A DNA stretch of 64,000 nt from Escherichia coli. GTDB taxonomy: Bacteria; Pseudomonadota; Gammaproteobacteria; Enterobacterales; Enterobacteriaceae. The translations under genes and the position numbers were made by a program. The notes under the pieces were generated by a model, which did not search any database, had not been told where the DNA came from, and saw only the letters and a program-made list of their open reading frames with translations. Location of the stretch: the NCBI RefSeq assembly GCF_003334785.1, contig NZ_QOWV01000008.1; one strand, 5' to 3'. Shown one piece after another: positions 39,432 through 53,172 of the stretch (positions are counted from its first letter, which is position 1; every line of letters begins with the position of its first letter).

Positions 39432-40616
39432 CTAAATATCTTTAATAAACAGCAGGCAAATCATCGCAATACCCAACATCCCTATCGCCAGCCAGAACAA
39501 CGCATGGTAGCTCCAGATTTCAACCATAATTCCGTCAACAGAGCCGGCGATAATCCAGCCGACGCGTGAAGTATTTGCATATAACGTTGTCGCAGAGCCT
39601 ATTTTTTCAGGCATCAAGTCCTGAAAATAAAGCATGCCGATACCACAGAGAATACCAAGGAAGATGGCATTAAGAATTTGCAATTCCAGCTCAACCGCCG
39701 GAGTCGTCGCCATGAGTACGCTGGCGTAAAAACACATTCCACTCACGATAGCAATGAGCATTAATAGTCGCTTGCCAATACGTTTCATGTAATAGCCTGC
39801 GATTAACATCATCGGAATTTCCAGACCGGCAGCGATACCAATCATTTCTCCAGCCAGTTTATCGGTTAGATGCAGTTCATCAATAATAAATAGCGGCATA
39901 TTTATCATGTAGAGATTATTCGCCGCCCACATCATTGAACAGACCACAAAAAGTAGCCGCGTATCCCGCTTCCTGTGGGTGGAGGGTAAAATTTCTACGG
40001 GTTGGGTAACGACAGGAATATTTCTTTGTATTGATGGCAAAAACAACCAGACTATCAGTCCGCAAACAACAAATGCGATGGCAGCGGTGAGATACATCAC
40101 TTTAAAACTAAATCCCATTGCCAGTTCATAAGCGAGCGGTGGCCCGATAACCCAGGCAAGCGAGATCTGAGCACGTAAAAATGTACTGAACATGACCGTC
40201 TCACGGCCTGTTCTGTCGGCGTGTTCACGGGCGAGGGCGAACATTTGCGGGTTTGCGGTGGAAGCAAAACTACTCAGAAGTACGCCCGTTGAGAGGAGAA
40301 TGAAGTAGTTGCGATTCCACGCAAAAAGCGTGCAGGCCAGCACTCCAAATAAGCAACATAGCAGAATCAGTAATTTACGGTCGCCTTGTTTATCGGAGTG
40401 CCTTGCCAGAAATTGACTGACCAGAATTCCCATAATAGCGCTACCGGTGAAGAAAAAACCTACCATTATAGGACGGGCTTTCAGTTCATCTGCGAGGAAT
40501 ATACTTAGGGTAGGAGTCTGAAGAGCGCCCGCAATACCCGTCAGAAAGGCGACAAGTAAAAATGCCGCGGCAGTGAGATCAAGTATTTTTGATGGAGTGG
40601 TAGCCGTTTTTTGCAT
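39432..40616 (-). CDS. setC: Sugar efflux transporter SetC (MFS)
   Basis: 394-aa MFS ORF. Confidence 0.85.
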   Translation of the reverse strand: MQKTATTPSKILDLTAAAFLLVAFLTGIAGALQTPTLSIFLADELKARPIMVGFFFTGSAIMGILVSQFLARHSDKQGDRKLLILLCCLFGVLACTLFAWNRNYFILLSTGVLLSSFASTANPQMFALAREHADRTGRETVMFSTFLRAQISLAWVIGPPLAYELAMGFSFKVMYLTAAIAFVVCGLIVWLFLPSIQRNIPVVTQPVEILPSTHRKRDTRLLFVVCSMMWAANNLYMINMPLFIIDELHLTDKLAGEMIGIAAGLEIPMMLIAGYYMKRIGKRLLMLIAIVSGMCFYASVLMATTPAVELELQILNAIFLGILCGIGMLYFQDLMPEKIGSATTLYANTSRVGWIIAGSVDGIMVEIWSYHALFWLAIGMLGIAMICLLFIKDI

Positions 40617-41249
40617 TCTTCTGAATCACCGGGCGAAAAAATATAACTGAGTTACAAATAAGTACCAGTCGAATGAGTATTGTATTAAGAATTTTTGAGT
40701 ATCGCTGATACAACCAGAAAGCAATGCTAGCGCAATATTATAGGGCCAGCAATTGAGATTATTAGTAAAAGCATGTTAAGAATTAATTACCGAATTTATA
40801 TATTAATTATAGTAAGGCAATGAGCTATTTTTGATAGTAAAAATAAAACAAGTTGATTTGATATATTAAATGAACAAATTAATCTTGATGGCAGTCTGAT
40901 TATTGGTGAAGTTTATAGTCAGTTTTTTTCGCCAGCGGTTAAAGAAATAGAATAGTCGTATAAAAAAGGGTGTTCTGGGGCGAGTAAAACAACATCTTCA
41001 CCTTAATGGCGATACAGTTGGCTGAGAGTCAGCAGGGGGGCAAATCACCTGCAAATAAACACGGCGCATACTGGCGTGAATATCGCGGATGCGTTCGAGG
41101 ACAGAAGAACCGACAGGCGGATTCTTCAGCCGCTCATCGTCCATCACAAAACCTTAGACCAGGTATTCCTGAAGCCGATTGAATATTGAGCAGTAGAAAA
41201 TATCTGGATTGACAGTATTACAAGGGGTTGGAGAACGTCAGGAGAGGCA

Positions 41250-41273
41250 TTTTGGCGGAAGATCACAGGAGTC
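41250..41273. repeat. Distal att repeat: 24-bp direct copy of the selC 3' end
   Basis: ttttggcggaagatcacaggagtc is identical to 53075..53098. Confidence 0.7.
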
Positions 41274-41401: not shown

Positions 41402-41695
41402 GAAAAAAATTTTTTTTCGAAAGAACTGTTCACACTGTTCACCTTTCTGTTTTCTCCTTTTATTTCAGTTTGATAGGTGGTGAATAATGGGTGAAGGGTG
41501 AACATTCGATTCTTCACCTCCGGCATTCTGCCGGTGTGACTTGTGCAGGGGATTAATCCTCCGCACTGAAATCACACAGGGAGAAAAAAGTTTTTTTGAT
41601 TTGATTGTTCATCTTTCGTTTTTCTCTTTTAATTTCAGTGTGATAACGGGTGAATATACGGTGAAGGGTGAACAGTGGATTGTTCACTTTCGGGG
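41402..41695. repeat. crr-like region: two imperfect ~120-bp direct repeats with TGTTCAC motifs
   Basis: Units at about 41402..41522 and 41579..41695 share tgttcac / gggtgaa / ggtgaagggtgaaca blocks. Confidence 0.6.
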
Positions 41696-41703
41696 AATTC
41701 AGG

Positions 41704-41731
41704 GATAAAAAAAGACCGGCAGATGCCGGTC
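41704..41731 (-). terminator. Rho-independent terminator after alpha
   Basis: gaccggcagatgccggtc hairpin with U-run on the minus strand. Confidence 0.6.
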
Positions 41732-41738
41732 AGATGAG

Positions 41739-44072
41739 TCAGGCTGTTGCAGGGTCGTCACATTTCGGCAGCCAGTCGCCGTAGCTTTCCTCTTTCAGCG
41801 TCAGGTTGGTCTGTATCCCCTGTTTGGTATGGCGCTTCTCGTAATTCAGTCCGTATTCCTTCAGCATCACCGGCAGCCCCAGCCCGAACATTTTCAGACT
41901 GAGTACATTCCGGTAGCCGTTTGCCTCCATGTAGGCCAGATAGGCGTGATAGAGGTATTTACGGTAATTACGCGGGATGATACTGGCGTTCCCCATATAC
42001 ATGCCGCTGGTCTGCGGCAGGGTTTCCAGATAGCCGATAAAATCAAACGTCGGGTCGGCATCCCGTTTGATGTTCAGTGCCTCGTCTGAGTTCTGCTGGG
42101 ACTGAAGCAGTGACCGGGCGAGCATCGGGTCGCTGAACTTCTGCATCAGGTAACGCACGATGACCGCCAGCTCGCGGGTGATTTTGTCCTTAAGCTGCGG
42201 GTCGCGCTCCTGCGGGGCTATCTGTTCCGGGAAGTGAATAATCACCCGCCGGCGTGACACGCCGCCGCTGCGGTCGGTGAAGCGCATCGGGTTATTGTTC
42301 ACGGCCAGAATCACCGCCGGGATGTGCGTGGAGTACGCATCCCGGTATTTCGGGTCAACGGACACCGCATCGCCGCCGGTGATGGCCTTGAGTCCGGCAC
42401 CGTCGCCGCTCCATTTTTCCTGGTCCGGCAGGCGTATCAGTGAGAAGCCAGTTAACGCGGCACGTTCACGCGGGGATTCCAGCGTCTCGATGGTGGCCGA
42501 CGTGGCGTTATCCTCACCGGCCAGCAGGGTGGCTATTTCGGCCATGATACTTTTGCCGCTGCCGCCGGGACCGGTCACCTCCAGAAAGAGCTGCCAGTCG
42601 TAGCGGTTTGCCAGCACCATAAACAGTGCGGCCAGAATCACGTCGCGTTTTTCCGCACGGCCACCGGCGGCACGGTCAAGCCAGCGCCAGAATGCGGGGG
42701 CGTGGGTTTCCAGCGTTTCACCTTCCACCGGCGGGGTGAAATCCACATCGCACAGGGCGCGCATCCAGTGTGACGGACTGTGCGGGTGGAACGTGCCGTT
42801 CTGCGTGTCGAGCACGCCGTTACGAAAGCCAATCAGGCGGCGGGAGGGGGCTTCCTGCTGCGGAATAATCAGCTTCAGGGTGTCCACCACGGAGGCCACC
42901 TTCCCGGAGGAGAACGGCGCGCGCAGACGCTGAAACAGCCCGGCCACATCCCGGGCAAAGTCCTGTGGTGGCAGCACCTTCCAGACACCATTTTCATAGC
43001 GGGACAGAAGCTGGCCGTTGGCATCGACCGCGAGCGCCTCGCCGTAATGCTCATAGATACGCATGGCCTTTTCGCTGGTACTCATGGCGGAAAACTCCGC
43101 TTCGCTCATGGTGTCGAACGGGCTTTCAGCCGGTGGCCGGATGGCATCATAAATGGCCTTACGGGTGGTTTCCCCGCCGTACTGCGTGAAGGCATCATTC
43201 CAGTCACCGAAGACCGGCGGCAGGGCAACAACGCCCTCACACGCATCTGCGGCTGCGGCGGCTTTTTTCTGGCCGTCACCGCTGAGGTCACGGTCTGCGG
43301 CAAGGACAATCTGACAGGCCGGATGCTTCTGCCGGGCAAGGCTGGCCAGAGAAAGGAGGTTCACGGAAGAAAGCGCCACCATCACCGTTTCACCGGTCAG
43401 GTGATGTACGGTAAGTGCGGTCGCGTATCCCTCCGCTATCCACAGACGTTTTCCGGCCTGATTCTGTCCTTCAAGGGTGTGACAGGTGCCCCTGACCTGT
43501 CCGCCTTTCAGGGTGCGCTTACGGCCGTCAGCACTGATTAACTGAAGGTTAACCAGTTCGCCGCTGTCGTCATACAGTGGCACCACAAGGTCACCGGCGC
43601 GCCAGCTCACGCCACCGGCTCTGTGTGTGCCGGTCAGCATCCGGCATTCCCGGCCGGGAAAGCCCTTGCGGGTCAGGTAGGCGTTACCGGTTCCGGGACG
43701 GGTTTTCGCCATCAGGGTTTGTGCCAGTGCGGCGGCGTTCTTCCGGGCGGCTTCTGTTTCAGCACCGGCGGCGGCCGTCACTGCCGGGTCAGCCGGGGGC
43801 AGGCAGCCGGTCACGGCAGCCACCTTTGCGGCCGCGTCGGACGGGGAAACACCAAACACCTTTTCAACCAGTTTCAGGCCGTCACCGGCACCACACTGAT
43901 TGCAGTACCAGGTGCCGCGCCCCTCCCTGTCATCAAAACGGAAACGGTCACTTCCGCCACAGACCGGACAGGGCTGATGACGGTTTTTCAGCACCTGAAT
44001 CCCCAGCGACGGGAGAATACGCGGCCAGTGGCCGAGCGCATGGCTGACGGTGGCGGTTACGTTCATTTTCAT
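41739..44072 (-). CDS. P4 alpha-type primase-helicase
   Basis: 777-aa ORF; N-terminal zinc-ribbon CPVCGG..CNQCG, Walker A GPGGSGKS. Confidence 0.9.
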   Translation of the reverse strand: MKMNVTATVSHALGHWPRILPSLGIQVLKNRHQPCPVCGGSDRFRFDDREGRGTWYCNQCGAGDGLKLVEKVFGVSPSDAAAKVAAVTGCLPPADPAVTAAAGAETEAARKNAAALAQTLMAKTRPGTGNAYLTRKGFPGRECRMLTGTHRAGGVSWRAGDLVVPLYDDSGELVNLQLISADGRKRTLKGGQVRGTCHTLEGQNQAGKRLWIAEGYATALTVHHLTGETVMVALSSVNLLSLASLARQKHPACQIVLAADRDLSGDGQKKAAAAADACEGVVALPPVFGDWNDAFTQYGGETTRKAIYDAIRPPAESPFDTMSEAEFSAMSTSEKAMRIYEHYGEALAVDANGQLLSRYENGVWKVLPPQDFARDVAGLFQRLRAPFSSGKVASVVDTLKLIIPQQEAPSRRLIGFRNGVLDTQNGTFHPHSPSHWMRALCDVDFTPPVEGETLETHAPAFWRWLDRAAGGRAEKRDVILAALFMVLANRYDWQLFLEVTGPGGSGKSIMAEIATLLAGEDNATSATIETLESPRERAALTGFSLIRLPDQEKWSGDGAGLKAITGGDAVSVDPKYRDAYSTHIPAVILAVNNNPMRFTDRSGGVSRRRVIIHFPEQIAPQERDPQLKDKITRELAVIVRYLMQKFSDPMLARSLLQSQQNSDEALNIKRDADPTFDFIGYLETLPQTSGMYMGNASIIPRNYRKYLYHAYLAYMEANGYRNVLSLKMFGLGLPVMLKEYGLNYEKRHTKQGIQTNLTLKEESYGDWLPKCDDPATA

Positions 44073-44998: not shown

Positions 44999-45857
44999 GC
45001 GTCCTGTCTCCCCGGTCTTTCTGCTGGGCGAGAAAATCGCGGCACAGGCCTTTGGCTTTCAGCTCATTCAGCACAAAATCAATATCTTCATTCAGGTAAC
45101 TGAAAATATGCGGAATGTAGAGCTGATGCAGGCCGGAGAGTTCACGGTGAATCAAATCACCCCCAACAAACTGGGATACGGCGCTGGCGCGGTTGAGCTT
45201 ATGGTAAGCCTCAATGCTGAGGTGTTCACGGGCGTCATGACGCGCTGAGACGGTCTGAGGGGCTTTTTTATTACGCACGGGACACCTCCACCACCGGCAG
45301 ACGGGCAGCAAGGGAGAGCACATAGTCACGGACAAGGGAACGGCGGGCGCTGCGTTCATCACCGGCGACGGTGCGAAGCATACAGATACGGGGATGACGG
45401 TCTGTGCGACGGACAGCCGCAAACACAAAGACAAATTCAGGGTGTGAGGGGGTAAGGGTTGTAGCCATGATGGCAGCCTCCTGTGAATAGCAAATAACGC
45501 TATCGCCGGAGTTCTCACGCTCGATGGCGATAGCCCAGACGGGGGTGAGAATACCGGCTTCACAGGATACCGGCCAGCCCGGAGGCTGCCCCGCCTGAGC
45601 TACCATTGACTCAGAGGCATAACATGCGATTGCGAACAGGATCATACCTGCACGGCAAACCACACGCCACACCATAATCTGGTGCTCTGTGGCGTTGATT
45701 GCGACACAAAAAAAGACGCATGGCGCGTCATATGTCGCCTGTGAATTGCTCGGGTTCTCACGCCCGGCTGCCGATTTTGCGGCAGCGGAAAAACTATATC
45801 CGCAAATGCCGGAAAAAGGCAAGCCAGAAAAAGGGAGTTTTTGCAGAGCGGGCATCA

Positions 45858-47981: not shown

Positions 47982-48554
47982 ATGGAAAGCACAGCCTTAC
48001 AGCAGGCCTTTGACACCTGTCAGAATAACAAAGCAGCATGGCTGCAACGCAAAAATGAGCTGGCTGCGGCCGAACAGGAATATCTGCGGCTTCTGTCAGG
48101 AGAAGGCAGAAACGTCAGTCGCCTGGACGAATTACGCAATATTATCGAAGTCAGAAAATGGCAGGTGAATCAGGCCGCCGGTCGTTATATTCGTTCGCAT
48201 GAAGCCGTTCAGCACATCAGCATCCGCGACCGGCTGAATGATTTTATGCAGCAGCACGGCACAGCACTGGCGGCGGCACTGGCACCGGAGCTGATGGGCT
48301 ACAGTGAGCTGACGGCCATTGCCCGAAACTGTGCCATACAGCGTGCCACAGATGCCCTGCGTGAAGCCCTTCTGTCCTGGCTTGCGAAGGGTGAAAAAAT
48401 TAATTATTCCGCACAGGATAGCGACATTTTAACGGCCATTGGATTCAGACCTGACGCGGCTTCGGTGGATGACAGCCGTGAAAAATTCACCCCTGCGCAG
48501 AACATGATTTTTTCGCGTAAAAGTGCGCAACTGGCATCACGTCAGTCTGTGTAA
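47982..48554 (+). CDS. P4 Psu-like polarity suppression / capsid decoration protein
   Basis: 190-aa ORF following delta. Confidence 0.8.
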   Translation: MESTALQQAFDTCQNNKAAWLQRKNELAAAEQEYLRLLSGEGRNVSRLDELRNIIEVRKWQVNQAAGRYIRSHEAVQHISIRDRLNDFMQQHGTALAAALAPELMGYSELTAIARNCAIQRATDALREALLSWLAKGEKINYSAQDSDILTAIGFRPDAASVDDSREKFTPAQNMIFSRKSAQLASRQSV

Positions 48555-48718
48555 AATTCCCCGAAAATCCGCCCGTTTTTACTGAAAAAAGCCATGCATC
48601 GATAAGGTGCATGGCTTTGCATGCGTTTTCCTGCCTCATTTTCTGCAGATCGCGCCACGCCCGGCGTGGCCTGAGCGTGTCAGCGCAACTGCATTAAAAC
48701 CATCCCACAAAGCGGGCG

Positions 48719-48737
48719 GGCGAGGCGGGGAAAGCAC
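48719..48737. other. cos site (P2/P4-type 19-nt cohesive end sequence)
   Basis: ggcgaggcggggaaagcac. Confidence 0.6.
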
Positions 48738-48979
48738 TGCGCGCTTACTTAGATGCGTGAATTTATTTATATCACTGAAGTATATCCCTAAGCTCATTTC
48801 TCAAAGGGCCTATGGTTGCACAAGGTTGTACCATGGCATTCAAAACTTTTTAAACCAAGAATGACAATTTCATTATTAGGCCGGAATAGTTACTAATTTT
48901 AGTATAGGTTGCGATTGTTTAACGCATTTTTTATTATGATGCAGATTTTATTATTACTAATGGGGTGCAAAAAACACGT

Positions 48980-50269
48980 ATGAAAAAAAATGTTGGTAAC
49001 CGCAATAAAAATTCTGATGTGCTTATTCTTAAAGGTATGTTGAACAATTTAAAAGATGGTTTAAATAATTTTGAATTATTGCTTAAATTGCAGTTTAAAA
49101 TATTGGTGTGCGTGATGAGATGTGAGCGGAAAATTAAGTTTCTTAAAAAGAATAATGCTCATTTAAGGTCGGTGTTAAAAAAATCAAGACTTCCAAAAGA
49201 AAAATCTCTGGCAGTAAAAGAAAAAATTAAATACAATTCTGAAGTAATTACTGCTGAAAAATTCAAGATATATACGTATAAAATGTTTGGCGATGCTGTT
49301 GCATTTTTATACATCGATAAATATACAATTAAACAGTTATACTACAATGTACATAATTACAATGTTAAAGAAACGTCGGGGGATTTGAGCGGTAAGTCTG
49401 GATTGCGAGAGGAATGGGAATGCGTAAAACTTGCATGTGATAATAAAGTTCCAGCTCTGTTGCATGATATTACAATGAGTATAAGGCATGGAGATGTATC
49501 ACTTTTAGGTAAAGATGAGCCATTTATTATTGAGATGAAATCAAGCTCAAATACAAATAAGAGAGTTGAGCGGCAAAAATCTAACCTTGAAAAATTAGGA
49601 AGTTTCATAGCAAAAGACGAAGCTGAAAATTTTCGAGGGATTCCATTGTTAATCAGGAAAAATTTGTTAACTGAAGAGGAATCATATTCTCAGGTTTTAA
49701 ATGAGTGTCTTAATGATTGTCGCAGCAAAGGAATGGCTTTGGTTGAAGCTGAAAAAGGATTTTATATCTGCGCAGTTAGAGAAGGGAATATGGCTTCTAT
49801 GCTAGAAAATATAGATTTTGATGAAAAAAAAGAAGTTTTTCCTGTATTTCTCAATCAATATAAAAATAATGGGGAGTGGCTACCATTAACACCATTTACA
49901 CTATTAATTAACGATCCTTACGATCTCCATGATTTTATCGAAGGGGAATTAACAATAGCTTGTTTTTTAATGCTCGATGAATACAAAAAAATTGCTATAG
50001 AACTAGGCTATGAATTAGTTTTTGTTTCTAATGATGAATATAGTATCTTGTTAAAAAGAATTGGTGAAGATATTATATTTGGTGTTTCCTGGCAAATGTT
50101 GTTAAGAGTTCCATTAGAGATGATGTCCATGTCATGGTTGATAAAAGAAAGTATTAATATATATAGTAACTCCCTAGAAAATAGCACCCATAATGATGAA
50201 TTAAATCAGGGGCAGGGAAATACTAAAAATTCATTATTCGAAAAATACAAGAATTTATTTTCTTACTAA
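48980..50269 (+). CDS. Hypothetical protein in satellite variable region; PD-(D/E)xK-like signature
   Basis: ORF 48965..50269 (GTG) or ATG at 48980; AT-rich; motif HGDVSLLGKDEPFIIEMK. Confidence 0.6.
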   Translation: MKKNVGNRNKNSDVLILKGMLNNLKDGLNNFELLLKLQFKILVCVMRCERKIKFLKKNNAHLRSVLKKSRLPKEKSLAVKEKIKYNSEVITAEKFKIYTYKMFGDAVAFLYIDKYTIKQLYYNVHNYNVKETSGDLSGKSGLREEWECVKLACDNKVPALLHDITMSIRHGDVSLLGKDEPFIIEMKSSSNTNKRVERQKSNLEKLGSFIAKDEAENFRGIPLLIRKNLLTEEESYSQVLNECLNDCRSKGMALVEAEKGFYICAVREGNMASMLENIDFDEKKEVFPVFLNQYKNNGEWLPLTPFTLLINDPYDLHDFIEGELTIACFLMLDEYKKIAIELGYELVFVSNDEYSILLKRIGEDIIFGVSWQMLLRVPLEMMSMSWLIKESINIYSNSLENSTHNDELNQGQGNTKNSLFEKYKNLFSY

Positions 50270-50301
50270 TTAAGCATTGTAATTATATTTGATTTTTTCT
50301 A

Positions 50302-50335
50302 CAGGCTTGGACGGAATCATATAGCTCCAAGCCTG
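50302..50335. terminator. Hairpin between the two convergent cargo ORFs
   Basis: Perfect 10-bp stem caggcttgga..tccaagcctg with 14-nt loop. Confidence 0.45.
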
Positions 50336-50370
50336 TTGTGTCGGTATCAAAAAGAAAGTGATATTATTGT

Positions 50371-51744
50371 TTATCTAATATATTTTGTTACTTCCATATT
50401 ATCTTCATCGTCAAAAGAGTACTCAACCATCATACGACTATTTTTACCTGACTTAATATCTTGAAGCCAAGCTGAGGCAACCCTAGGGTCTAAATGCTGT
50501 TTTCTACTCAGCTCATTATTTTTTAGCCTATCAAGCCTTATTGCTCTTTGAAGAGTTTTATCGATGTAGTCTTCCAAATCAATGGACAACCTCCTTTTTG
50601 GATATAAATATTGGTATTCATCACACAATAGTACTCCTGGTAATTTAATTTCGCGTAGGTCGAAAGAATACCAACTATAGTTTTTAGACTCATTAGCTAA
50701 TTCCGAAACTAGATGAGCCCCATTTTGTTGTAAGAGAGATATTTTGTGATCGATGCTAATGTCAGATATTTCTCTTAAAGACTCAAAATGCATGTTTTCG
50801 TAGATAGTATTTAATAAAATACTCTCCATGTAAGAGTAAAAATCAGTACCATCGATGATAATATTAGTTTCATTGTAGACTGCAAGAGACATAAGATATA
50901 TGAAGAAAACTGCGGGAGTACTATTACCTCTGTTTATATCAAGTCTAAGGGAGTTGACATAATCAGGCGGAGAGTTTGAGAAAATTTCTCTTATTAACCA
51001 GTCTGGAATAGTGGTTCTTGTTAGAATGTCAGCGTTCAAACTTGAACGACATAAAAAAATACACATCTTTAATTTTAATTTTATTGAAAATGATGGGAAT
51101 AAATGATCGATGAAAGATAAAATACATGTATACTCTGCTAAGTCTGTTTGTTGCAACTTTTCTTTTATTTCATTTTCAAGCATTTTTAATTTAAAAAAAT
51201 CATTCCTTTTTTCTAATATTTCCCAATGAAATAATTGCTCCTGAGCGTACGCATGCCCCTCTAAAATAGCTAGCATGCTTAAAGGAATGTTTAGGATTTC
51301 TTGATAATTATTAACATACCCAAAGAAATGGACTCTGATATACACACCCATATCGTCATCATATTGTAATGATGCTTTAATATTTTTATAATTTAATTTA
51401 TTAGTGCTGTTGTTTTTGAAGTGATAATGTAAAGTAATTTCAGTATCATCAACTAATAAATTATCAAAAGCCTCCTTTGTTTCATATTTAAAATAGTTAT
51501 ATAGCCGACATGAATAATTTAACCCCCAGTGAGTTGTAGAACAATCAAGTAAATGGATTGTTTCATGGAGATATGTTTTATAAAATTCAATTTCGCTATC
51601 ATCAAAATCATATATGCTTTTACTGTCTATGATATTTTGTGCTTGCGGTAAACTTATATTTAATTCATCGTTTGAAATCTCAATTAAATGTGATGAAAAA
51701 TCATAAGAACCCAATGTTTTGCTGTTAAATATACATCCGCTCAT
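50371..51744 (-). CDS. Hypothetical protein with HEXXH zinc-metallopeptidase motif, translationally coupled to int
   Basis: 457-aa AT-rich ORF; YLHETIHLLD at residues 58..67; start overlaps int stop as ATGA; agggga RBS. Confidence 0.65.
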   Translation of the reverse strand: MSGCIFNSKTLGSYDFSSHLIEISNDELNISLPQAQNIIDSKSIYDFDDSEIEFYKTYLHETIHLLDCSTTHWGLNYSCRLYNYFKYETKEAFDNLLVDDTEITLHYHFKNNSTNKLNYKNIKASLQYDDDMGVYIRVHFFGYVNNYQEILNIPLSMLAILEGHAYAQEQLFHWEILEKRNDFFKLKMLENEIKEKLQQTDLAEYTCILSFIDHLFPSFSIKLKLKMCIFLCRSSLNADILTRTTIPDWLIREIFSNSPPDYVNSLRLDINRGNSTPAVFFIYLMSLAVYNETNIIIDGTDFYSYMESILLNTIYENMHFESLREISDISIDHKISLLQQNGAHLVSELANESKNYSWYSFDLREIKLPGVLLCDEYQYLYPKRRLSIDLEDYIDKTLQRAIRLDRLKNNELSRKQHLDPRVASAWLQDIKSGKNSRMMVEYSFDDEDNMEVTKYIR

Positions 51745-52916
51745 AGCAAATCCCCTAAAAGATAATCAGAGTACCATTGAATCATCGTTTTCCTTTGAGA
51801 AAAATATTGTGCGTGATTATAGGTTCCTCGGATATTGTTCTTATCAACATGTGCTAATTGCATTTCAATCCAGGTACTATCAAATCCCTGTTCATGTAGG
51901 ATTGTTGACATTGTATGTCTAAAACCGTGACCTGTAGCACGTCCTTTGTAACCAAGTAACTCAATCACTTGTGAAACACTTTCTTTTGAAATTGGTTTGC
52001 TACGATTGTTCCTGCCAATAAAAATATAGGGATAATGGCCGGTGATAGGCTTTAGCTGTTTAAAGAGGTCTACCACCTGAGTAGACAAAGGTACAATATG
52101 TGGTCTGCGCATTTTCATACGTTCCGCTGGTATCTCCCATATACCTTTTTCGAGGTCTACTTCTTCCCACGTAGCAAAGCGCATCTCCTGCGTTCTTACA
52201 CCAGTCAGCATGACTATCTTCGTAGCATTTTTGGTGATGATGCTACCGGTATAAGCTTCGAGATCCCGAATAAAATGAGGCAATTCTTCGGCAGATAGAA
52301 ATGGATGATGTTTTTGCTTAGGAACGGCCAGAGCGATGGCTAAATCAGGCGCAGGATTGTATTCAGCGCGGCCAGTTATGATTGCGTAGCGATAAACCTC
52401 ACCGCACCTCTGACGTACCTTACGTGTTTTCTCTAGTGCTCCACGCTTCTCTATTCGTCGCAACACTTCAAGAAGTTCTAAGGGTTTGATTTCACTAATA
52501 GGACGTTTACCAATGAACGGGAAAACATCTTGCTCAAATGTTTTAATAATTTCTTCGCGGTAGGCAAGTGTCCAGCGATCGGCTTTATTTGAGTGCCACT
52601 CACGACATATAGCCTCGAATGAGTTTTCTGTTGAGAGCTGCTGTGCCAGCTTTTGGGCTTTACGTTCTTCCACTGGGTCTATGCCGTTTGCAACCTGCTT
52701 CCGAGCTGTATCGCGTTTCTCACGTGCTTCAGCTAGGCTCACAAGGTCGTAGCTACCAAATGACATTAACCGCGCTTTTCCGGCAAAGCGGAAACGGAAA
52801 CGCCAGCCCTTCGAGCCATCGGGATTGATAAGCAATGACAGGCCCTGCCCGTCGTTCAATGTGTATGGCTTGTCTTGGGGCTTTGCTCGTTTGATTTGTA
52901 TATCTGTAAGTGCCAT
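51741..52916 (-). CDS. int: P4-type tyrosine integrase
   Basis: 391-aa ORF with C-terminal catalytic-type residues (GHGFRHT.., ..NHAQY); adjacent to tRNA 3' end. Confidence 0.9.
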   Translation of the reverse strand: MALTDIQIKRAKPQDKPYTLNDGQGLSLLINPDGSKGWRFRFRFAGKARLMSFGSYDLVSLAEAREKRDTARKQVANGIDPVEERKAQKLAQQLSTENSFEAICREWHSNKADRWTLAYREEIIKTFEQDVFPFIGKRPISEIKPLELLEVLRRIEKRGALEKTRKVRQRCGEVYRYAIITGRAEYNPAPDLAIALAVPKQKHHPFLSAEELPHFIRDLEAYTGSIITKNATKIVMLTGVRTQEMRFATWEEVDLEKGIWEIPAERMKMRRPHIVPLSTQVVDLFKQLKPITGHYPYIFIGRNNRSKPISKESVSQVIELLGYKGRATGHGFRHTMSTILHEQGFDSTWIEMQLAHVDKNNIRGTYNHAQYFSQRKTMIQWYSDYLLGDLL

Positions 52917-53077
52917 GTGTATAAGCCAAAAATATGTATAAAAAATCTATACACATCACTATACATATTTTTCATGGATTCAGGGAGATCTTGTCGGACG
53001 GTTACGGATGAGTGATTTACTATATGTTTTGAAAATAAAGGATTTTTAGACTCTCTCGGATGGTGACGGAAGAATTT

Positions 53078-53172
53078 TGGCGGAAGATCACAGGAGTCGA
53101 ACCTGCCCGGGACCGCTGGCGGCCCCAACTGGATTTGAAGTCCAGCCGCCTCACCGGAGACGACGATCTTCC
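53078..53172 (-). tRNA. selC: tRNA-Sec (selenocysteine)
   Basis: Minus strand reads GGAAGATCGTCGTCTCCGGTGAGGCGGCTGGACTTCAAATCCAGTTGGGGCCGCCAGCGGTCCCGGGCAGGTTCGACTCCTGTGATCTTCCGCCA. Confidence 0.85.

Follow-up and report, generated by a model that had tools for sequence, protein, structure and literature searches.

What are two genes that no family library can place doing in the anti-phage hotspot of a satellite phage? The question arises in a 64,000-nucleotide stretch of Escherichia coli DNA (RefSeq assembly GCF_003334785.1, contig NZ_QOWV01000008.1; hereafter the window), where a P4-like satellite integrated at selC carries two convergent genes, here called A and B, in the slot between its cos site and its integrase gene, int. 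Rousset et al. (2022; PMC9122126) defined the psu/cos-int interval of P4 as an anti-phage hotspot, with more than 300 arrangements. System #32 of their P4 list (Table S1B) consists of the identical two proteins in the same slot, with 48 occurrences among 5,251 E. coli P4 loci; its domain column is empty, and the entry holds sequences and a count only. That the locus exists is already known, in the sense that it is listed, unannotated. The motifs, structural models, family sizes and non-P4 contexts described here are new.

We propose that A and B are two autonomous modules, a putative nuclease and a putative peptidase, most likely acting as anti-phage effectors of the abortive-infection type; to this full reading we give about an even chance. 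That at least one of the two genes is defensive seems to us somewhat more probable than that, because about 75% of the unknown loci tested from this hotspot were protective and because relatives of A and B lie in defence neighbourhoods. What we infer for the two proteins comprises their catalytic activities, triggers, targets and anti-phage phenotype. The cargo is laid out as follows (positions are those of the window):

48746-48979, plus strand: AT-rich leader of gene A, with sigma-70-like sites; the variable cargo begins here
48980-50269, plus strand: gene A (WP_000742539, RefSeq 'hypothetical protein'), 429 amino acids from an ATG
50301-50336, no strand: hairpin between the convergent genes A and B; stem 50301-50311 / 50326-50336, a perfect 11 bp, with a loop of 14 nucleotides
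50371-51744, minus strand: gene B (WP_001406847, RefSeq 'hypothetical protein'), 457 amino acids

An alternative GTG start at 48965 would lengthen A to 434 amino acids, and the leader contains promoter-like sites at 48861-48890 and 48909-48937 (consensus matches only). The ATG of B and the int stop codon overlap (ATGA), and a Shine-Dalgarno sequence, AGGGGA, lies 7 nucleotides upstream, inside the last int codons.

A sequence-only reading of the window had described two convergent open reading frames (ORFs) of about 429 amino acids on the plus strand and 457 on the minus strand, both strongly AT-rich, belonging to no family it could name and set in a slot with P4-like backbone on both sides, which it took for a hotspot of anti-phage genes. 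This description holds. Both ORFs are present as stated, psu, cos, int and selC are all found around them, the cargo differs in composition from the rest of the satellite, Pfam, NCBIfam and PADLOC are all empty for the two proteins, and the slot matches the published psu/cos-int hotspot (PMC9122126). Two details need adjustment. The interval, taken from 48555, does contain the cargo, but its first ~190 nucleotides are the conserved cos region and the variable cargo runs from about 48746. The hairpin between the genes is real and its stem is perfect, with 11 bp rather than 10.

How foreign is the cargo? Its GC content (48746-51744) is 0.307, against 0.530 in the remainder of the satellite and 0.510 in the window; local values along 48750-51750 are 0.27-0.34, and those of the backbone 0.52-0.63. 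Strain A1 of E. coli and nine more complete genomes match the interval at 99.6% identity or above. The cargo is in 10 of 5426 complete E. coli genomes; the flanking cos/psu sequence is in 2244. Similarity to other P4-like elements ends about 210 nucleotides into a query that starts at 48555. At the other end, int alleles of the selC type elsewhere in E. coli are at most 89% identical to this one, with similarity beginning 16-60 nucleotides from the 3' end, and alleles at least 99% identical are confined to the 10 E. coli genomes with this cargo. Because the allele is restricted to cargo carriers and its last 16-60 nucleotides diverge, a recombination boundary of the hotspot lies inside the 3' end of int. 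Those last 16-60 nucleotides belong to the variable module, placing the module boundary within int. In both its position and its variable, foreign content the slot is the P4 psu/cos-int hotspot.

The A and B pair is found in Klebsiella too, at 96-97% amino-acid identity. The record that holds it, Klebsiella pneumoniae CP125156.1 (PLSDB, 5.37 Mb), is filed as a plasmid yet is chromosome-sized. The presence of both genes there at this identity indicates that the cargo has crossed genera.

Are A and B genuine genes? Long spurious ORFs are possible, though stop-free frames of this length are rare in AT-rich DNA, and database annotation stops at 'hypothetical' for both, so that one might take them for chance open frames or decaying pseudogenes. 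We compared the window with L011, from another enterobacterial assembly (L010-L012), in which a P4-like satellite occupies the same selC site and has the same pair in the same arrangement. Amino-acid identities between the two, and ratios of non-synonymous to synonymous substitution rates (dN/dS), are:

gene A: 74% identity, dN/dS 0.125
gene B: 72% identity, dN/dS 0.076
int: 94% identity, dN/dS 0.067
alpha: 84% identity, dN/dS 0.123
psu: 63% identity, dN/dS 0.174
sid-position gene: 29% identity, dN/dS 0.411

The synonymous rate (dS) exceeds 1 for both A and B. In the diverged selC loci (proteins about 74% identical) the intergenic hairpin is retained with altered stem bases and is followed by a U-tract. 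The low dN/dS, together with a hairpin structure that is kept while its bases change, shows that A and B are under purifying selection. Full-length dN/dS of 0.08-0.13, homologues that keep the invariant motifs down to 20-30% identity, confident AlphaFold models of both proteins and, for B, a conserved N-terminus preceded by a Shine-Dalgarno sequence all contradict the idea of chance frames or pseudogenes. These results already refute it, and we leave it next to no chance of being correct.

The hairpin in the window has minimum free energies of -19.8 and -19.3 kcal/mol (z = -3.1 and -4.6 against shuffled sequence). A terminator scan misses it: it has no U-tract, and a T-run stands upstream of the stem instead. 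A canonical bidirectional intrinsic terminator is therefore not supported here. In the diverged pair (L011, 9325-9370) the hairpin, with its U-tract, looks like a terminator for gene A.

The two proteins are strangers to the libraries that we searched. Neither A nor B matched Pfam, NCBIfam or PADLOC, permissive thresholds included. Against the known defence families of PADLOC-DB v2.0.0 both gave zero hits at E <= 1, and ten distant members of each family gave only two PADLOC hits, both insignificant (E = 0.006 and 0.026). Sequence profiles of the two families matched no PDB chain, the confident AlphaFold models of A and B found no analogue among solved structures, and tblastn against 50,697 deposited phage genomes matched neither protein. 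PHROGs places A alone, in phrog_14906 (no known function). In the literature, searched by accession, PHROG identifier, and peptide and DNA strings, the pair appears only in Table S1 of Rousset et al.; the B cassette described below is not in the integron defence study. A and B are orphan families, and both are very small: A comprises 36 clusters among 5.8 billion proteins, profile search included, and B 188 representatives among 1.84 billion. A profile scan with a 15-sequence alignment found B in 7 of 100,044 species-representative genomes, all of them Gammaproteobacteria (Colwellia, Pseudoalteromonas, Idiomarina, Photobacterium, two Acinetobacter species and Paraperlucidibaca).

What might such proteins do? 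The AlphaFold2 model of A (mean predicted local distance difference test score, pLDDT, 82.6; predicted template modelling score, pTM, 0.84) has a long antiparallel helical hairpin (residues 13-111), which a disordered linker joins to an alpha/beta body. In 34 A sequences that range from 26 to 91% identity, G104-D105, E145, D172, E185, K187, S189, R195, R198 and Q199 are invariant, and the same alignment has a second invariant block in the C-terminal domain. All but the first pair of these residues fall in one segment of the gene:

49412-49576, plus strand: putative nuclease active-site segment of A (E145, D172, E185-x-K187, S189, R195, R198, Q199)

The segment contains the PD-(D/E)xK motif, D...(D/E)xK plus an upstream Glu. 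In the model, E145 lies on helix 142-154; then come strand 159-161, strand 173-175 with D172 at its start, and strand 182-184, which runs into E185-x-K187; helix 192-212, bearing R195, R198 and Q199, and strand 214-218 follow. The predicted order, alpha-beta-beta-beta-alpha-beta, would be the canonical layout of a PD-(D/E)xK nuclease core. A resembles this superfamily in its invariant E...D...ExK and in the basic and Gln residues on the next helix, whereas its helical hairpin and C-terminal domain have no counterpart there. From motifs and predicted secondary structure, A is likely a PD-(D/E)xK-type nuclease; it looks like a cytoplasmic protein in which an N-terminal helical hairpin is joined to a PD-(D/E)xK-like core and a conserved C-terminal alpha/beta domain.

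The same four motif residues (E145, D172, E185 and K187) are found in two further systems of Rousset et al. and in a homologue on a viral contig, L041. P4 system #37 (PMC9122126) is a shorter A paralogue of about 340 amino acids, with 43 occurrences, paired with a 72-amino-acid protein; P2 system #138 is a full-length homologue. Both share FGD, IRHGDV or MRHGDV, and E-x-K with A. They differ from the locus in the window in their partners: #138 has none, and in #37 the 72-amino-acid protein replaces B. Both are unannotated and, with no hit in Table S2, outside the set of systems that were tested.

The AlphaFold model of B is mostly helical (pLDDT 91.2, pTM 0.90), and three short stretches of its sequence are conserved almost without exception:

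51544-51567, minus strand: HETIHLLD, the HExxHxxD motif of B (H60, E61, H64, D67), on helix 49-70
51238-51261, minus strand: EGHAYAQE, the ExxAxxxE motif of B (E162, A165, E169), on helix 157-179
51130-51135, minus strand: E204-Y205, a conserved pair of B, on helix 200-215

On helix 49-70 the full motif string is HExxHxxD(x5)WG; the ExxAxxxE helix comes after a three-stranded beta-meander. H60, E61, H64 and D67 are invariant in a 57-sequence alignment. Among 129 aligned family members H60, H64 and D67 occur in 125 and E61 in 124, the others being gaps except for one D at E61. E162 is present in all 129, A165 in 124, E169 in 128, E204 in 118 and Y205 in 128, and the essentially invariant set in these relatives is H60, E61, H64, D67, W73, G74, E162, A165, E169 and Y205. 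An HExxH helix followed by a helix that bears a Glu is the signature of gluzincin metallopeptidases, and B has both, an HExxH on one helix and a downstream Glu on a later one. The local sequence LEGHAY presumably resembles the third-ligand motif of M1-family enzymes. We propose E162 as the third metal ligand, and Y205 is a possible catalytic residue. By these motifs B looks like a gluzincin-type zinc metallopeptidase.

Two kinds of metallopeptidase from mobile elements invite comparison. In Lit (Peptidase U49) the e14 prophage has a zinc metalloprotease of abortive infection: the Gol peptide of T4 triggers it to cleave EF-Tu. Like B, Lit is the product of a single prophage or satellite gene that adjoins the integrase at the end of the element, and it has an HExxH motif; unlike Lit (297 amino acids), B has 457 amino acids, gives no Pfam hit and carries an additional invariant ExxAxxxE and Tyr. 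ImmA/IrrE-type proteins and CapP are also HExxH metallopeptidases on mobile elements, near immune operons. To our knowledge these are regulators that cleave a partner repressor, and they are small and always paired with a helix-turn-helix repressor, whereas B has about 450 amino acids and no conserved neighbour, occurs as a lone integron cassette and does not match Pfam Peptidase_M78.

Do A and B work as one system or as two? From their layout and the hairpin the sequence-only reading had judged them to be two independent single-gene modules, and the contexts of their relatives bear this out, each gene being found alone elsewhere. P2-like prophages of Citrobacter and Serratia, and five IMG/VR contigs, have A without B in the P2 hotspot, which lies between gpA and the portal gene; its E. 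coli representative is P2 system #138 (Rousset Table S5B), a one-gene system counted 16 times. In the decayed satellite of Pluralibacter gergoviae (L013-L015), present in many genomes, A is full-length at 91% identity beside a psu fragment and an N-terminal fragment of int, with most of int and all of B lost; the retention of A there looks like domestication. More distant members of the A family follow tail genes or stand beside the integrase of other prophages, and some are on Rhizobium plasmids; they adjoin DruA or DUF4238 genes and also a Hailong-like pair.

B without A has an equally wide range of carriers. A Vibrio parahaemolyticus integron carries it as a one-gene cassette between attC-like repeats, of which the array has 24. 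Tn7-like tnsABC-tniQ or tniQ-cas-like genes stand beside it in Idiomarina and Photobacterium; in Colwellia it is directly upstream of QatA and QatC; its neighbour in viral contigs is an anti-repressor or an AbiA-like gene, and elsewhere a PIN toxin-antitoxin pair precedes it. A comparison of 22 genes next to B-family members showed no similarity among them, and on this ground a conserved partner gene for B is rejected. A profile scan of 40 loci found A and B together in two settings only, the P4-at-selC lineage and an unrelated viral contig (L024/L041); A occurs without B in 17 of 22 A-family loci, and B without A in 18 of 23 B-family loci. In L041 (IMGVR_UViG_3300014774_000065) the two lie on the same strand, about 4.8 kb apart, with a Hailong-like pair and other genes between them. 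Because each gene occurs alone in other mobile-element contexts, we conclude, on this genomic evidence, that A and B are probably separable modules.

Several of these loci have features of their own. The Hailong-like pair in L041 (1439-3066, minus strand) is made up of a pentapeptide-repeat / K+-channel protein, which has 29% identity to Rousset P4 system #27, and a nucleotidyltransferase, which has 24%. In Photobacterium ganghwense (L037, 9495-14456), four co-directional ORFs of 407, 691, 349 and 207 amino acids lie downstream of the B-family gene; the 691-amino-acid product matches Csy2 weakly (E = 1e-7; 31 bits, where the cut-off is 154), and by their arrangement the four may be the tniQ-cas8/5-cas7-cas6 operon of a CRISPR-associated Tn7-like transposon. 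In a Colwellia metagenome-assembled genome (L034, 9696-13700), QatA and QatC match NCBIfam at E = 3e-112 and 4e-120, QatC above its own cut-off and QatA at 376 bits, below the curated 600; two unannotated ORFs (960 and 460 amino acids) lie upstream. In a Serratia fonticola P2-like prophage (L007, 9771-11141) a 456-amino-acid orphan without a Pfam or PADLOC match follows the A homologue in the P2 hotspot and is another hotspot candidate. We considered whether this neighbour is a cryptic B, and BLASTP and hhalign were negative; a 241-amino-acid neighbour of the Idiomarina B homologue was likewise rejected as a cryptic A.

How well does the proposal of two abortive-infection effectors stand? If it is right, the nuclease A would stay inactive until its hairpin and/or its C-terminal domain, acting in sensing or oligomerisation, responds to infection, and would then cut phage or host nucleic acid. 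B would behave in a Lit-like manner, a phage product switching on its cleavage of an essential host or phage protein. A number of results weigh against this proposal. The enzyme classes assigned to A and B are read from motifs and predicted secondary structure alone. A one-by-one Pfam scan of 34 A-family and 57 B-family members returned nothing, and hence no nuclease or peptidase family. Profile homology of A to PD-(D/E)xK enzymes did not appear in Pfam (A and 34 members), NCBIfam or a PDB profile search, its model retrieved no solved nuclease structure, and no known peptidase family resembled B in structure or profile. The alpha-beta-beta-beta-alpha-beta order in A comes from a segment modelled with moderate confidence (pLDDT 64-79). 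The cII protein of P4 (sce7726 family; gop-beta-cII is the cargo of this slot in P4) aligns with A motif on motif in hhalign (A 165-203 on cII 36-73), but the alignment is non-significant, with a probability of 0.1%, so that homology of the central motif to cII stays no more than a lead. For B, hhalign of the 57-sequence profile against Lit of E. coli K-12 covered 11 columns at 1.3% probability, and B is rejected as a Lit homologue. A promoter scan found none of B's own; B appears to be transcribed with int and translationally coupled to it, which would be odd for a constitutively ready defence gene. System #32 is outside the set that Rousset et al. cloned and tested (PMC9122126, Table S2), and neither the protein nor the DNA sequence of the pair is in the supplements of the preprint by Moura de Sousa et al. 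(bioRxiv 10.64898/2026.02.27.708500). Finally, A and B have stayed adjacent through dS above 1 and co-occur in a second, unrelated island, which weakens the case for full independence.

This last point bears on the rival view that A and B form one coupled system, in which, for example, B senses infection and cuts the helical hairpin of A, or one protein restrains the other. The pair is intact in all 10 E. coli genomes, in all loci listed by Rousset et al. and in Klebsiella; the same arrangement is kept at 72-74% identity, with dS above 1; and two very rare families meet again in the L024/L041 viral contig. Yet the genes are convergent with a hairpin between them and so are not co-transcribed. 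A lacks B in 17 of the 22 loci, among them the P2 single-gene systems and the Pluralibacter remnant, where A is intact after the loss of B; B lacks A in 18 of the 23, one of which is the single-gene integron cassette; and even in L041 some 4.8 kb, with the Hailong-like system and others, intervene. We consider a coupled system unlikely. The second co-occurrence of two rare families keeps a cooperative model alive, at the level of a minority view. A more specific version, in which two new enzyme families with folds unlike solved ones make up a protease-gated nuclease, B recognising a phage product and then setting off DNA degradation by a cut in A's hairpin or in a shared inhibitor, would account for at least two independent meetings of such extremely rare families; we hold it to be a long shot.

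It is also possible that the cargo is not for anti-phage defence at all and instead serves interference with the P2 helper or its exploitation, counter-defence, an addiction or toxin module, or some other host-fitness trait. Moura de Sousa et al. found six of eight randomly chosen unknown P4 loci to be phage-protective, so that two of the eight gave no protection (bioRxiv 10.64898/2026.02.27.708500). Such hotspots do carry non-defence cargo, for example partition systems and cytolethal distending toxin in P2, and translational coupling of B to int would tie its expression to the life cycle of the satellite. On the other side, both families occur outside satellites, in integrons, beside Tn7-like elements, in unrelated prophages, on plasmids and in a decayed remnant, which makes a role specific to P4 and P2 unlikely. 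Known defence genes recur as neighbours (Qat, AbiA-like, DruA, DUF4238 and the Hailong-like pair). No conserved small antitoxin-like partner is adjacent, and two convergent genes, both above 420 amino acids and with a hairpin between them, do not have the form of a type II toxin-antitoxin module. We judge a purpose outside defence to be improbable, and we retain two separate abortive-infection-type effectors as the preferred reading.

The element that carries A and B is 11.85 kb long, near the length of P4, and is delimited by two exact 25-bp direct repeats, the attachment (att) cores. Its backbone comprises:

41249-41273, no strand: left att core and left limit of the satellite; a 25-bp direct repeat (ATTTTGGCGGAAGATCACAGGAGTC) of the tRNA-Sec 3' end
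41739-44072, minus strand: ORF for a P4 alpha-like primase-helicase (RefSeq 'primase-helicase zinc-binding domain-containing protein')
45523-45799, minus strand: P4 immunity RNA region, with C4/CI antisense RNA, isrK and a1b1 targets (Rfam)
47982-48554, plus strand: psu, polarity suppression protein (RefSeq 'phage polarity suppression protein'), the last backbone gene ahead of cos
48719-48737, plus strand: cos, the 19-nucleotide P2/P4 cohesive-end sequence GGCGAGGCGGGGAAAGCAC; a single exact match, with 0 expected by chance
51741-52916, minus strand: int, P4-type tyrosine integrase (ORF call and RefSeq)
53074-53098: right att core, an exact copy of the repeat at 41249-41273, overlapping the 3' end of tRNA-Sec
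53078-53172, minus strand: tRNA-Sec (selC), from ARAGORN and Rfam RF01852 (83.8 bits); with the right att core it spans 53074-53172

The homologous alpha locus carries Pfam Toprim_3, D5_N and Pox_D5, and homologous psu loci carry PF07455. Within the immunity region the C4/CI RNA lies at 45523-45610, isrK at 45709-45786 and the a1b1 target element at 45747-45799; the Rfam scores there are 74.9 bits for RF01695, 71.4 for RF01394 and 49.5 for RF03163, each above its gathering score. The same Rfam scan matched zero families within the cargo. The sequence around cos is conserved with the P4 sequence in Table S2A of Rousset et al. The element holds a further set of P4 genes: DUF5375, an Icd-like gene, an AlpA-like helix-turn-helix gene, a sid-position gene and an Ogr/Delta gene. 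Two blocks of repeated GGTGAA(T/G)...GGTGAAGGGTGAACA / TGTTCAC motifs stand at about 41440-41720, in the gap that separates the left att core from the end of alpha; by sequence they look like P4 ori/crr-type alpha-binding iterons. Just beyond the left att core, at about 40500-41250, GC falls to 0.35-0.41 and RefSeq has a fragment of a RhuM-family pseudogene (about 41013-41174); this stretch is probably the remnant of an earlier selC island.

What would these two genes add to the biology of P4 satellites? The surprise is limited, since unknown genes are expected in this hotspot and about three-quarters of those tested are defensive. An empty row of a supplementary table has nevertheless become two precise hypotheses that can be tested by mutation. 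The P2 and P4 hotspots are reported almost never to exchange defence genes (bioRxiv 10.64898/2026.02.27.708500); few cargo types are common to both, and the A family is among them. The B family is one module with P4 satellites, Vibrio integron cassettes and Tn7-like elements as its carriers. If either gene protects, it would bring a new protein family, apparently with a new fold, into the anti-phage repertoire. If B protects, it would be a second, unrelated case of the rare single-gene metalloprotease effector of abortive infection of which Lit is the type.

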